DNA of 64,000 bases, from NCBI GenBank assembly GCA_036381415.1, contig DASVCV010000001.1, positions 1,411 to 65,410 on the forward strand. The letters run 5' to 3'. The notes under the pieces are model-generated. The model was not told the origin of the DNA. It saw only the letters and a list, made by a program, of their open reading frames with translations, and made no database searches. Origin of the DNA: Patescibacteria group bacterium. GTDB taxonomy: Bacteria > Patescibacteriota > Microgenomatia > UBA8517. Shown in pieces: positions 57,365-62,260 of the stretch; positions within the stretch are counted from its first letter, which is position 1, and every line of letters starts with the position of its first letter. The translations under genes were made by a program, and so were the position numbers.

Positions 57365-57733
57365 TTATTCTTTTGTAGGGATTTCAACTTCAGGAGGATT
57401 AAAAGTTAATCCAAATGATTGAGCTTTTTTCTCAAATCTTTCAACTTTATTTTCTGGAAGAAGAGGCTCTCCTCTTTTTTCAGCCTTTTCTTTTACTTGT
57501 TCAACCACATGAGGAAACTTGTTTTTTAGTTTTTTTAAATCATCATCTGCTCCGCGGTATTTTGCTTCTTCCATTCTTGCAAAAAGACCTATAAAAAGTT
57601 GAACTGGAGTAACACCGTTTTTCCTCTTAGCAGCCAACTCTTCATCATGAGGCTCTAAATTTAGTTCATCATCAAAAGTAGTTTTTGGCATATGCCATTC
57701 TTCTTTAGCTACTTCTGAAATGTTGTCTGCCAT
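57365..57733 (-). CDS. hypothetical protein, paralog A, with C-terminal EIPTKE motif
   Basis: Ends ...FNPPEVEIPTKE. Start placed at the second ATG (MADNIS) to avoid overlap. Confidence 0.45.
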   Translation of the reverse strand: MADNISEVAKEEWHMPKTTFDDELNLEPHDEELAAKRKNGVTPVQLFIGLFARMEEAKYRGADDDLKKLKNKFPHVVEQVKEKAEKRGEPLLPENKVERFEKKAQSFGLTFNPPEVEIPTKE

Positions 57734-57734
57734 T

Positions 57735-58256
57735 TTATTCTTTAGTAGGAATTTCAATTTCCTGCACAGTTTTTAGCTTTCCGTCAGATGTGTGAAATGA
57801 AAGTCTAAATTTGTTAACATTTTCTTCTAGTTTTTCCAGAGTGCGGGGTGGTATTTCTTGATGAAGTCTATCCTCCCTGGTGTCGCCTAGGGCTTTTATA
57901 ATGTCTTGAAATTCTTCTTTTGCAGCATCCACTAGTTTTTTTCCAATTCCAAAACCGTTTTTTGCATAATTTTCTCCTAAATTCAAAACTTCAATTCTTG
58001 CATTAAAAACTTGGGCAAGGGGTTTGTTGGATATTTCTTGGGTTGCATATTTTTGTTCACCACCGCGGTCTTTAGCTGTGGCTATATTTAAAGCAGGATG
58101 CTCAGCTGTTTTAGCCTGAGAGGCTCTAATTTCTGCATTTACCCTTTGGAATTTTTCCCACTTTGAAGGAGCCTTCTTAACTTCTGGCTCCATAACTTTG
58201 TCTGTCATTCCTAGCAATTGTAGTACAGTTGGCTCTCCAAATTCAATAAGAGACAT
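57735..58256 (-). CDS. hypothetical protein, paralog B, with C-terminal EIPTKE motif
   Basis: Ends ...FHTSDGKLKTVQEIEIPTKE. Confidence 0.45.
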   Translation of the reverse strand: MSLIEFGEPTVLQLLGMTDKVMEPEVKKAPSKWEKFQRVNAEIRASQAKTAEHPALNIATAKDRGGEQKYATQEISNKPLAQVFNARIEVLNLGENYAKNGFGIGKKLVDAAKEEFQDIIKALGDTREDRLHQEIPPRTLEKLEENVNKFRLSFHTSDGKLKTVQEIEIPTKE

Positions 58257-58329: not shown

Positions 58330-59556
58330 TTACGAGAGTTTTTTAAGGATTTCCTGAAGAGTAATGAGGCTCGTTTTATCACTTTTTCTTTCTTTATATT
58401 CAATTTTATCCCCTGTTTTTTCTGAAACAACTAGCCTTACAGGAATCCCAATAAGGTCTGAATCTCCAAACTTTTCACCAGCTCCTACAGCTCTGTCATC
58501 CCAGAGAACATCAATCCCATTTTCTTTCAACTCATCATAAATTTTTTGCGTATTTTTTGCTCCAGGGAGCTCTATTAAGTGGACATCAAAGGGAGCAATT
58601 TCTTTGCTCCAGATAATTCCTTTATCATCATGAGAAACTTCAACCCAGGTTCCCATAACTCTAGTGGAACCTATTCCATAGCTTCCAAACCAAACGGGCT
58701 TTTTCTTACCTTCTTTATCTGTATAGTAAAATCTCATGAGCTCTGCATATTTAGTACCTAATGGGAATATGTTTCCTACTTCAATTGATTTCTTTTCTAT
58801 AACTTTTCCTTTTTTACAGGAAGGACAGACATCTTTCTCCTTACCATCATATATTTCTTTGTTTGCTGCCCAGTCACATTTGTCACAGTAATAGATAGTA
58901 TCTTCCCCTACTTCTGAGAGAACTTGGAATTCGTGGGTGTGATTTGGGGTAAATACTCCACCTGCTGCTTCTGTAATTTTAAAATCAAATCCAAGTCTGG
59001 TAAAAATTTTTGAGTATGCTTTTTTTACTTTTTCATAATAATCCATTAAATCTTTTTCAGAAGTGTGGGCTGAGTAAAGATCTTTCATCATGAACTCTCT
59101 GCCTCTTAGAATTCCTGATTTAGCTCTTGGTTCATTTCTAAACTTTGTTGAGAAATGATAGATTGCAACTGGAAGATCCTGGTAGCTATTTATATGCTTT
59201 CTTAATAAATCTATAACAATTTCTTCATGAGTAAATGAAAGAGCTGATTCTTTTCCTCTTGCATCTCTTAACTTGTACATAATGTCTCCTGCTTTGTCCC
59301 ATCTTCCAGTTTCATTCCAGATTGATTTAGGATGAAGAAGAGGCATGAGAAGTTCTTCTCCCCCTACTGCATTCATTTCCTGTCTAATTATGTTATTTAT
59401 TTTATTAACTACTTTAAAACCTAATGGAAGAAGAGTCCAAGAGCCTGCCATTAGTTGATCAATAAATCCTGCCCTTACTAGGAGTTTGTGATTAACACTA
59501 GCTGCCTCTTTAGGTGCTTCTTTAATTGTTTTGGGGAATAGTTTAGATTGAAGCAT
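58330..59556 (-). CDS. proS: prolyl-tRNA synthetase (compact, archaeal/eukaryote-like class II) with inserted zinc ribbon
   Basis: Class II motifs. CDKCDW...CPSCKKG insertion. Confidence 0.9.
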   Translation of the reverse strand: MLQSKLFPKTIKEAPKEAASVNHKLLVRAGFIDQLMAGSWTLLPLGFKVVNKINNIIRQEMNAVGGEELLMPLLHPKSIWNETGRWDKAGDIMYKLRDARGKESALSFTHEEIVIDLLRKHINSYQDLPVAIYHFSTKFRNEPRAKSGILRGREFMMKDLYSAHTSEKDLMDYYEKVKKAYSKIFTRLGFDFKITEAAGGVFTPNHTHEFQVLSEVGEDTIYYCDKCDWAANKEIYDGKEKDVCPSCKKGKVIEKKSIEVGNIFPLGTKYAELMRFYYTDKEGKKKPVWFGSYGIGSTRVMGTWVEVSHDDKGIIWSKEIAPFDVHLIELPGAKNTQKIYDELKENGIDVLWDDRAVGAGEKFGDSDLIGIPVRLVVSEKTGDKIEYKERKSDKTSLITLQEILKKLS

Positions 59557-59557
59557 T

Positions 59558-59854
59558 TTAGAAATTTGCTTTTAACCTCACATCAATCATATTTTTAAGT
59601 CTTTCACATTGATTATTCTTCGGATTAATACCTCCATCATTTACAAAACACATTGATTTACAATTTTTTCGAGTTTCTTCCAAAGCCTCACCAATTTCTC
59701 GCAAGAGTTTTCTCCTTTGGGGAGTAGTTAGCCTAATTCCTTCTTCCTGCTCTGTTAAAAACTCTACCAAAGTACATGGACTGGCCACTCCTCCTAACAG
59801 CTGACATGTTTTACACTCTATTGGATTTGGCTTAAGGGACATGAGTTCTACCAT
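59558..59854 (-). CDS. Cys-rich small hypothetical protein, translationally coupled upstream of proS
   Basis: Six Cys (CKTC, C, C, C, C). 1-nt gap to proS. Confidence 0.4.
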   Translation of the reverse strand: MVELMSLKPNPIECKTCQLLGGVASPCTLVEFLTEQEEGIRLTTPQRRKLLREIGEALEETRKNCKSMCFVNDGGINPKNNQCERLKNMIDVRLKANF

Positions 59855-59927
59855 ATTTAGTATTTTATATTACTCAGGCTTAAAGGTAAATGGGAAAGGC
59901 ATTCACTTGCAATGATATAATAGCCTT

Positions 59928-60152
59928 ATGAAGAAGGTAATAAGATTAGATCAAAATCATGAGTATTTTGTGAGAGCTGACCTATCTAAATATCAAAATG
60001 AGTGGATAGCAATTTCAGGCAAGAAGGTAGTTGCACATGGATCTGATGCAGATGTAGTCTACAAAGAAGCAAGAAAGAAAAAACCAAGAGCAGAAATCTC
60101 TTTAGCTAAAGTTTTGCCTCCCAAACCAATGATTCTTTCCTTTCTTAAATGA
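59928..60152 (+). CDS. small protein partner of the retropepsin-like protease
   Basis: 74 aa. ATGA 4-bp overlap with the next gene. Confidence 0.45.
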   Translation: MKKVIRLDQNHEYFVRADLSKYQNEWIAISGKKVVAHGSDADVVYKEARKKKPRAEISLAKVLPPKPMILSFLK

Positions 60153-60559
60153 TTGCTTTTAAGTATAAAAAAGAAAAAGTTGGAATATTGGGAGAAGCTA
60201 CTCCAAGACCAGTTGCAATAGTAAGCCTTAAAACAGCGGATGGAAAATGGTATAGATTCCAGCCTTACATAGATTCAGGGGCTGATATTACTCTCCTTTC
60301 CCAGTCAACAGGAAAACTTATTGGATTAAAAGAAGACGGACCTAATCAAAAGAAAAGTACATTGGGTGGAATATCAGGAGGGATACCAGTAATTTATACA
60401 ACTGTTACCATGTCTATTGATAACCATGAATTCCAGGCAAAAGTAGCCTGGGCACAGATATCTGGGATTCCCCCACTTTTAGGAAGAGCTGATGTATTTG
60501 AACACTTCAAAATCACTTTTAAAGAAAAGGAAGGAATTATTGAGTTTGAGAAAGTTTAG
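60149..60559 (+). CDS. retropepsin-like (clan AA) aspartic protease
   Basis: YIDSGADITLLS catalytic D-S-G-A motif and about 135-aa single-domain size. Confidence 0.65.
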   Translation: MIAFKYKKEKVGILGEATPRPVAIVSLKTADGKWYRFQPYIDSGADITLLSQSTGKLIGLKEDGPNQKKSTLGGISGGIPVIYTTVTMSIDNHEFQAKVAWAQISGIPPLLGRADVFEHFKITFKEKEGIIEFEKV

Positions 60560-60565
60560 CTTGTG

Positions 60566-62260
60566 TTACCTGACAAGAGGTGACTCCAAGGAGCGGTCAA
60601 ATCTTTGGTATTTTTCAAAACTGTTAAGACTGCTATAAAGATTAAATGATTTGGTAAGAACTGCTTCTAACTCTTTTTTAATAATTGTGTTTTTAAGTTT
60701 TTCGTAGGCATTTTTCTCTGCAAAATTAAAATCATATTTTCTATAGGGAGACTCATTTCTTCCAATCAGGGAGGAATAATTACTGTTTATGTTTTGAAGC
60801 GTTAAAGATGAATATACTATTTTTCTAACATCATCTGGGGTTCTAGCAGAAGCTGGGATTGCCCCTACTCTTTCTACTTCTTTCTTGGCGTTATCATAAG
60901 CTGCAATCCATCCATCTACTGCATCTGGGGAGAGCTTACTTATATAAACATAATCTACTTCATTATTTACTGTGGGAGGAAAATTGTTTGCAATTAATTT
61001 ATCAACATTTACTACTCCAACTAGAAATAGTGCACCTATGCATAAACCAATTTCAGACAAGAACCATTTCTTTCTTGTTGAAATAAGCTGACGAGTAATA
61101 AGTACTATTGTTAATGCAATAAGAAGAATTAGAAATGCAGATCCATATATCCTAATTCTTGTTAGGCCATGGGCTATTTGATAAAGGTATACTCTTCTTA
61201 AAATTGAAATTATAAACACAAGAATTTCAAAAAGAAGCGCAAGGTTTAAATTTCTTAACAACTTTTTTGACTTTTCTGACGCAGAGTAGATATGTGAAGA
61301 AATAATACTTGTAAAATAAACAACAACGGCAACAAGAGTGAGTTCTCCAAACCCACGCCTGACATATTCAGAGTAAGTCATAATTCCAAATTCTGACAGT
61401 TTATTTTCTGGCACCTGGACAAAGAGATACTTAAATTGAATTACTAAAAATACAGCAAAAATAGTACACAGAATTGATACCAGAGTTGCTGTTTCTAATT
61501 GGTATTTTCCAACATGAATATCTTTAAAAGGATGTGCATATTTTTTCTTTATAGTTGAAAAGAGGAACGGAGCAGCAAAAAATAAAAATGCAGAAGTTCC
61601 TACTATCCTTGCTATTAGCCAAGGAGCAATTGGAGGAAGTTTAATGTTAAAAATATCTTTTACTAATTTGCCAAAAATTGGATCTGCTGATCCCAAAAGA
61701 ATTAATACAAATGCAGCGATTGGAATTGCTATTAAAATTCCTCTTATTACTGAACCAATCTCACTCTTTTTACTGCTTAGGGATAATTTTCTTTTTAAGA
61801 AAACAGCGAATAAATCAAGAGTCTGAGGCAAAAGATTAAATATTTGTAAAAATCCTCTAATCCAAACCATAAACAGCCTTTGAGGAACAACAAGGAATTC
61901 TGAGATTGTTTGGCTTAAGGGGTTTGCAAGAGATATGACATAAATGAGAATTAAAGTAAGTATTCCGCTTAAGAAATTAAGAAGAAAAGAGTCTATGAAA
62001 TTTGCTCTAAAAAGTGCTATTAAAGAAGAAAGAATTGCTACTCCTGATAAAAGATAGGCGTATTTTTTATTGTCTTTATTTAAATCTTTATATTTTCCAA
62101 CAAATAAATAAATTTGAGCTGAAACAACAAAAATTAAAAACCCTAGTGTGCCTATAAGGGGTACTGTAAAAAATGTTACTGCACTGGAGTTATATGAAAC
62201 AAAAAAAAGAAGGTTAAAAACAACGATGGCTAGGACGATAGCAATGGCTTTTCGTATCAA
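60566..62260 (-). CDS. large polytopic membrane protein, hypothetical
   Basis: About 12 TM helices plus a C-terminal soluble domain. Confidence 0.5.
   Translation of the reverse strand: MIRKAIAIVLAIVVFNLLFFVSYNSSAVTFFTVPLIGTLGFLIFVVSAQIYLFVGKYKDLNKDNKKYAYLLSGVAILSSLIALFRANFIDSFLLNFLSGILTLILIYVISLANPLSQTISEFLVVPQRLFMVWIRGFLQIFNLLPQTLDLFAVFLKRKLSLSSKKSEIGSVIRGILIAIPIAAFVLILLGSADPIFGKLVKDIFNIKLPPIAPWLIARIVGTSAFLFFAAPFLFSTIKKKYAHPFKDIHVGKYQLETATLVSILCTIFAVFLVIQFKYLFVQVPENKLSEFGIMTYSEYVRRGFGELTLVAVVVYFTSIISSHIYSASEKSKKLLRNLNLALLFEILVFIISILRRVYLYQIAHGLTRIRIYGSAFLILLIALTIVLITRQLISTRKKWFLSEIGLCIGALFLVGVVNVDKLIANNFPPTVNNEVDYVYISKLSPDAVDGWIAAYDNAKKEVERVGAIPASARTPDDVRKIVYSSLTLQNINSNYSSLIGRNESPYRKYDFNFAEKNAYEKLKNTIIKKELEAVLTKSFNLYSSLNSFEKYQRFDRSLESPLVR

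Follow-up and report, generated by a model that had tools for sequence, protein, structure and literature searches.

A retropepsin-like protease preceded by DUF5678 in a Patescibacteria genome: a possible toxin-antitoxin-like cassette

The window analysed here is a stretch of 64,000 nucleotides from a Patescibacteria (candidate phyla radiation, CPR) metagenome-assembled genome (MAG; GCA_036381415.1, contig DASVCV010000001.1). On its plus strand it carries a pair of open reading frames (ORFs), a small gene for a 74-aa DUF5678 protein (59928..60152) followed by a gene for a free-standing, 136-aa retropepsin-like aspartic protease (60149..60559). The two genes interlock in an ATGA start/stop overlap (60149..60152), where the ATG of the protease gene (60149-60151) overlaps the TGA of the small gene (60150-60152). 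Both ORFs and the 4-bp overlap had been described in a sequence-only reading of the window and were confirmed. We propose that the pair is a mobile toxin-antitoxin (TA)-like cassette, in which DUF5678 is an antitoxin-like partner that inhibits, in the manner of a pro-domain, a harmful protease acting as effector or toxin. The evidence, in our judgement, leans slightly towards this reading.

Identity of the protease

The downstream protein was confirmed to be a clan-AA retropepsin-like aspartic protease by hidden Markov model (HMM), profile and fold evidence. It scored 21.1 bits against the RVP model, above the gathering cut-off (GA) of 20.7, and 20.7 bits against Asp_protease_2, just under the GA of 24.3. 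The latter model was matched by 21 of 30 protease homologues (best E 5.5e-6). Comparison of a family profile with the PDB returned the proteases of Rous sarcoma virus (RSV), myeloblastosis-associated virus (MAV) and equine infectious anaemia virus (EIAV) as well as Ddi1, with weak E values of 6e-4 to 8e-3. No aspartic-protease model of NCBIfam matched the window protease at E≤1, and there was no relevant match for the DUF5678 protein either; the release searched was assumed to include clan_AA_DTGA (TIGR02281) and the AF_0612-type model (TIGR03698), which we take to be NCBIfam subfamilies of clan AA. In the NCBI annotation the two proteins are named 'DUF5678 domain-containing protein' (HEX6976803.1, small protein) and 'hypothetical protein' (HEX6976804.1, protease).

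The catalytic hydrophobic-hydrophobic-D-(T/S)-G-A motif of clan AA is present as Y-I-D42-S-G-A-D, and D42-S-G-A-D46 is encoded at 60272..60286 on the plus strand (D-S-G-A, residues 42-45, at 60272-60283). Residues D42, G44, A45, D46, G74 and the segment P108-x-L-L-G-R113 are invariant in 30 homologues. Of 118 full-length family members from the fetched loci, 117 retain D-S-G-A (IDSGAD in 100, VDSGAD in 15), which points to the family protease being a working enzyme. A Gly-rich flap-like hairpin, L-G-G-I-S-G-G-I-P-V (residues 72-81, 60362..60391, plus strand), aligns with the G-I-G-G flap region of avian retroviral proteases, and the predicted model has a beta-hairpin at residues 69-90. Further downstream, P-P-L-L-G-R-A-D (residues 108-115, 60470..60493, plus strand) is equivalent to the retropepsin helix-capping motif (I/L)-(I/L)-G-R-(N/D); it reads L(L/M)GRxD in nearly all relatives. 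The predicted fold is that of a single-lobe retropepsin with a flap hairpin and a G-R-(N/D) helix. Together with the RVP score and the conservation across the 30 homologues, this fold shows that the D-S-G-A match was not fortuitous. The family comprises 660 clusters at 50% identity that score E≤1e-10. Free-standing clan AA proteases of ~135 aa had been called rare in bacteria in the sequence-only reading; the present family is not rare in uncultivated lineages.

The motifs and the fold are those of retroviral proteases (RVP, MEROPS A2), such as the enzymes of human immunodeficiency virus types 1 and 2 (HIV-1, HIV-2), simian and feline immunodeficiency virus (SIV, FIV), EIAV and RSV. Shared features are D-(S/T)-G-A-D (D-T-G-A-D in the HIV protease), the Gly-rich flap, the G-R-(N/D) motif and the overall fold. 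Unlike the retroviral enzymes, the window protease stands outside any polyprotein or virus, has an extra N-terminal strand pair of ~20 residues and is accompanied by a partner that is a separate folded protein; at the profile level, its family matches PDB retropepsins weakly (E 6e-4 to 1e-3). On this likeness the gene might be taken for a relic of a virus or retroelement, a leftover maturation protease with no cellular role. We regard this as extremely improbable: the flanks contain no capsid, integrase or reverse transcriptase genes, a PHROGs search gave nothing relevant, the protease-profile scan found no relative in 2.9 million viral contigs, and both genes of the pair are under purifying selection.

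A bacterial retropepsin-like protease is also found in Rickettsia conorii. This protein, ApRick/APRc, is a soluble domain whose parent protein is anchored in the membrane, and to our knowledge no small partner gene has been reported for it. The window protease shares 13% identity with it (PDB 5c9b) and differs in being free-standing, 136 aa long and cytosolic; its family is always preceded by DUF5678.

Linkage, fusion and one-sided decay of the pair

The occurrence of the pair was surveyed by a protease-profile scan covering one genome per GTDB species, which yielded 80 loci from ~20 bacterial and archaeal phyla. Bacterial loci belong to Patescibacteria, Omnitrophota, Nitrospirota, Dehalococcoidia, WOR-1, WOR-3, Aminicenantes and Planctomycetes. 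Archaeal loci belong to Thermoplasmata, Aciduliprofundum, Methanosarcinales, Methanoperedens, Bathyarchaeia, Aenigmarchaeota, Woesearchaeota, Nanohalarchaeota, Altarchaeum and Nitrosotalea. For 79 of 83 protease ORFs, the start coincides with the end of a DUF5678 ORF, and the remaining four lie at contig ends. By a strict count, an intact DUF5678 gene was found directly upstream of every assessable intact protease (73/73), so that the linkage of the two genes holds in each genome where it could be assessed. Among intact pairs from other genomes, 72% (78 of 109) overlap by 4 nt as well, and 75 of these 78 overlaps are ATGA. Pairwise divergences of protease and DUF5678 are correlated (r=0.72, Mantel p=0.001). 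Archaeal homologues are 46-50% identical to the window protease, whereas some homologues from Patescibacteria reach only 40%. This closer relation to archaeal proteins indicates transfer between the two domains, and the cassette would thus have moved horizontally between bacteria and archaea. Eight of the closest protease relatives (L001, L003, L005, L006, L009-L011 and L023) come from assemblies labelled 'uncultured Gammaproteobacteria bacterium', a label that looks doubtful. Tandem double DUF5678-protease pairs on the same strand were seen in an Altarchaeum MAG (L047, 2908-3520 and 3810-4414) and in a Shapirobacteria MAG (L018, 1133-1788 and 3480-4090).

Further support for a joint action of the two proteins is provided by natural fusions. 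Seven proteins of 201-216 aa with a C-terminal protease domain were found among the best 150 library representatives. For five of them, the N-terminal ~75 residues gave sub-threshold DUF5678 matches in the expected place, and a profile of this N-terminal domain aligned with the DUF5678 partners with an hhalign probability of 95.8% (E 6.6e-9). The two halves are joined end to end, and the region after the conserved V-P passes straight into the first strand of the protease. Such 'Rosetta stone' fusions argue that DUF5678 and the protease may act as one physical unit, and they suggest a pro-domain-like relation of DUF5678 to the enzyme. Over-long protease ORFs in L012, L052, L069 and L070 were considered as additional fusions and were rejected as ORF-calling artefacts, the small gene lying in another frame.

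The converse search started from the partner. An alignment of the 64-aa DUF5678 clade was run against metagenome contigs and gave 80 loci, which collapsed into 58 clusters after near-identical loci were merged; seven were cut by a contig end and 51 were assessable. In these 51 loci the protease was intact in 25, split by a frameshift or stop in six, reduced to a deletion remnant in eight and missing in 12. Hence an intact protease was missing for 26 of 51 partners, whereas none of the 73 proteases was without its partner (Fisher p ~6e-13). With a protease gene only about double the length of the small gene, neutral decay of dead cassettes would not give a ratio of 26:0; one-sided decay is what one would predict for a protease that does harm when DUF5678 is absent. 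Independent look-ups identified P0048, P0124, P0070 and P0115 as orphan DUF5678 genes, P0083 as followed by a protease remnant without the catalytic region, and P0031 and P0032 as intact pairs.

The orphan DUF5678 genes adjoin genes for MazF together with a ribbon-helix-helix (RHH) protein, PIN remnants, MNT-HEPN pairs, DUF4258, TumE, DndB and GmrSD. In several loci (L087, L088, L175, L146 and L148, from at least two unrelated contexts) a DUF5678 gene without protease is directly followed by a nucleotidyltransferase (MNT) and HEPN pair; this reflects replacement of the protease by a TA cassette or else alternative partners of DUF5678. At ~3001-3195 of L081-L084 the same orphan DUF5678 gene (P0048), beside hisG and apbE, borders a variable slot, which holds GmrSD in two assemblies and DndB with an SMC-like ATPase in two others. 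The slot looks like a hotspot of defence-gene exchange. Through the asymmetric decay, the context that varies between lineages and the orphan small genes among TA and defence genes, the toxin-antitoxin-like architecture named in the sequence-only reading gained support. The chaperone-protease architecture named beside it is less favoured.

The DUF5678 partner, expression signals and proposed mechanism

The 74-aa protein matched Pfam DUF5678 (PF18929) with 49.9 bits (GA 23.2) over profile positions 3-46 of 49, and PF18929 was carried by 120 of 120 among the DUF5678-profile matches listed. The partner, described in the sequence-only reading as a small protein, therefore belongs to a family already known. 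It had also been described as one half of a basic/acidic combination; this did not hold, as the isoelectric points of the two window proteins are 9.9 and 9.1 and both are basic. The most conserved part of the protein is the segment A-K-V-(L/P)-x-x-x-x-(hydrophobic)3 with the C-terminal tail (residues 60-74, 60105..60149, plus strand). G38, P63 and L70 are nearly invariant among 54 DUF5678 partners, and A60 and K61 are invariant among 49. The tail is unstructured in the predicted model, and residues 60-74 are a candidate for the segment that contacts the protease. Comparison of a DUF5678 profile with PDB sequences returned only beta-alpha matches to glutathione peroxidases and phosphoribosyltransferases, which were rejected as spurious. 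Some DUF5678 proteins of 64-70 aa (P0043, P0048, P0083, P0103, P0104, P0105) bear odd public names, such as 'succinyl-CoA synthetase subunit alpha', 'orotate phosphoribosyltransferase-like', 'MinD ATPase' and 'enoyl-CoA hydratase'; these are probably mis-annotations from short beta-alpha similarity.

The hydrophobic tail also bears on the idea that DUF5678 is the dedicated substrate or precursor of the protease, for example with a C-terminal tail that is cleaved to release or activate a small protein. Its conserved endings (…ERMLVL, …PMILSFLK) do resemble retropepsin P1/P1' preferences, and orphan small genes stay intact, as they would if the small protein had a function of its own. Yet DUF5678 is a conserved folded domain rather than a variable core peptide, orphans have retained this tail with no protease to cut it, and the observation that the protease is never found alone would stay unexplained. 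We consider this explanation highly unlikely.

An extended -10 promoter-like element, TGATATAAT (59913..59921, plus strand), was read from the sequence 6 nt 5' of the ATG of the small gene. The orthologous loci L170 and L171 share its pattern, TGnTAnAAT, 5-6 nt upstream of the ATG. A generic -35/-10 scan did not report the element, and a generic sigma-70 and terminator scan gave nothing useful on the plus strand. On inspection of the sequence, neither gene of the pair is preceded by a Shine-Dalgarno sequence. We infer that TGATATAAT is an extended -10 promoter giving rise to a leaderless or near-leaderless mRNA of the small gene. The ATGA overlap indicates a probable translational coupling of the small gene and the protease, whose translation would then proceed by termination-reinitiation at ATGA.

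In the mechanism that we propose, the DUF5678 gene would be transcribed from the extended -10 promoter, probably into a leaderless mRNA, and DUF5678 would be translated first, followed by the protease coupled to it via ATGA. The soluble protease would homodimerise, its two D-S-G-A loops forming a single active site, by analogy with all retropepsins. DUF5678, in effect a pro-domain encoded as a separate protein, would bind the protease in a fixed ratio and render it harmless. The N-terminus of retropepsins forms the dimer interface, and the conserved 'AKVP...hydrophobic' tail, lying beside the N-terminal strand of the protease, may hinder dimerisation or access to the cleft. Loss or degradation of the partner would leave the protease free to cleave cellular targets, to the detriment of the cell. 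Physical binding, inhibition and toxicity, as well as the trigger and the substrates, are presumed in this scheme. Retroviral proteases are restrained by the upstream segment of their polyprotein until self-cleavage, which resembles the role proposed for DUF5678 and the fused forms described above.

We advance tentatively, as possible rather than probable, that this would be the first TA or abortive-infection family with an aspartic retropepsin-like protease as toxin, neutralised by a separately encoded, pro-domain-like DUF5678 protein. No aspartic-protease toxin was found in the literature searched, nor was any description of the DUF5678-protease pair (searches for DUF5678, PDC-M52, retropepsin or aspartyl protease with toxin-antitoxin, and aspartyl protease with arCOG). 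If the proposal is true, such a family would occur widely among CPR and DPANN members and further uncultivated bacteria and archaea, and aspartic proteases would form a new enzymatic class among prokaryotic TA and defence toxins and effectors. DUF5678 would acquire a function, and would provide a natural protein inhibitor of a retropepsin that is relevant to protease regulation and inhibitor design. The pair would be a prokaryotic counterpart, possibly an evolutionary relative, of the restraint of retroviral proteases by an upstream polyprotein segment. Regulated free-standing retropepsins would exist in both prokaryotic domains, which bears on the origin of the retroviral and Ddi1-type proteases.

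Genomic context and comparison with known systems

The 141 immediate neighbours of the pairs match 159 Pfam families (E≤1e-5), no family more than twice. Since flanking genes are unrelated between lineages, the pair is likely to be autonomous; the data point to a self-contained cassette. In this and several other respects it resembles type II TA systems. The small gene comes first and its stop overlaps the start of the effector gene, the cassettes are autonomous and found in varied surroundings, there is horizontal transfer between domains, and the distribution is patchy. Tandem paralogues occur, some 'antitoxins' are orphans whose 'toxins' have decayed, and other TA genes lie nearby. Unlike type II antitoxins, DUF5678 has no known antitoxin DNA-binding fold, and no operator was found.

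A variant of the proposed function is abortive infection, in which the two proteins form an anti-phage sensor-effector pair and phage infection frees the protease to cut host or phage proteins. PDC-M52 is a candidate phage-defence two-gene cassette (FAM_01284>>FAM_00696) that has been seen 55 times, and PDC candidates were discovered within BREX, DISARM and type I restriction-modification loci (Payne et al., bioRxiv 10.1101/2024.01.29.577857). The second gene (B) of PDC-M52 is homologous to the protease family: of 30 members, 28 matched the PADLOC model PDC-M52B (best E 3.1e-9) and nine matched PDC-M08B. Orphan DUF5678 flanks the variable slot with GmrSD or DndB, and a few neighbours of the pairs match AbiE, methyltransferase (MTase) and SoFic models. 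Against this, the window protease itself matched PDC-M52B only with E 0.025, none of 54 DUF5678 partners matched PDC-M52A even at E≤1, and no other PADLOC model matched DUF5678. With a match to B and none to A, the window pair is not PDC-M52; it has a homologous protease and a different partner. The PDC systems are candidates only, the neighbours are mostly housekeeping genes, and the viral contigs scanned held no homologue. We consider the abortive-infection variant unlikely. A small free-standing retropepsin with a link to defence is known from Sulfolobales: Saci_1895, an archaeal retropepsin-domain protein of ~100 aa, is associated with CRISPR type III (Vestergaard et al. 2014, PMC3973734). 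By its description it is set apart from the window protease, being found with cas genes and not with DUF5678; there are no cas genes near the window pair.

The window and two orthologous loci offer a view of the pair within one lineage. In L170 and L171 the cassette likewise lies between proS and rseP-frr-tsf-rpsB; the M50 protease encoded there is 89% (L170) and 54% (L171) identical to that of the window. The conserved site in genomes whose M50 proteins are only 54% identical argues for long-term retention of the cassette. Compared with the close relative L170, the small protein is 72% and the protease 62% identical, while M50 and Frr reach 89% and 92%. The dN/dS ratio was ~0.25 for the protease and 0.07 for M50, a single usable value, as dS was saturated for most comparisons. 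Judging from these substitutions, both genes of the pair are under purifying selection. The cassette diverges much faster than its flanks, or has been exchanged.

Several observations weigh against the TA-like reading. Genes next to the pairs mostly have housekeeping functions, and defence models are matched by only a minority of them. In three genomes of the window's lineage the pair occupies one conserved site (proS, pair, rseP-frr), and long-term retention under purifying selection would also fit a useful housekeeping role. A search for an inverted-repeat operator upstream of the pair found none. The two samples behind the decay asymmetry come from different collections, and their clades overlap only partly. 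Sequencing errors may account for some of the 'split' proteases; with this class left out, the comparison still stands at 20/45 versus 0/73. A housekeeping protease could have DUF5678 as its obligate helper, be it a folding chaperone, an activator or a ClpS-like substrate adaptor. Loss of such a helper would, however, leave neutral intact proteases behind, a state seen in 0 of 73 cases while the reverse is common, and a patchy distribution over two domains, unrelated flanks and tandem duplicates (L047, L018) are untypical of housekeeping genes. The helper explanation is in our view quite unlikely, and we retain the TA-like cassette as the reading to which the data lean.

In the window the plus-strand pair is surrounded by housekeeping genes on the minus strand, and the composition profile of the window revealed no clear compositional island. 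The minus-strand neighbours encode prolyl-tRNA synthetase, a 98-aa ORF, a DUF4153 membrane protein, an M50/PDZ site-2 protease and ribosome recycling factor. The window prolyl-tRNA synthetase (58330..59556, minus strand) has 408 aa, whereas the form at the same locus in L170 (2511..3971) has 486 aa and a ProRS-C_1 domain; the two are of different types and only 24% identical. The segment left of rseP, including the cassette, looks replaced or fast-evolving. The 98-aa ORF (59558..59854, minus strand) contains Cys residues and is separated from proS by a 2-nt gap; its IS66-like matches were non-significant (E 0.02-0.07). The DUF4153 gene (60566..62260, minus strand) encodes a multi-pass membrane protein of 564 aa. 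In the window it separates the cassette from rseP; L170 and L171 lack it at the corresponding position. Further away, ORFs of 130 aa (57365..57757) and 173 aa (57735..58256), both on the minus strand, are adjacent with a slight overlap and have no Pfam match. The two have a C-terminal motif, E-(I/V)-E-I-P-T-K-E, in common and may be paralogues or carry a common C-terminal signal.
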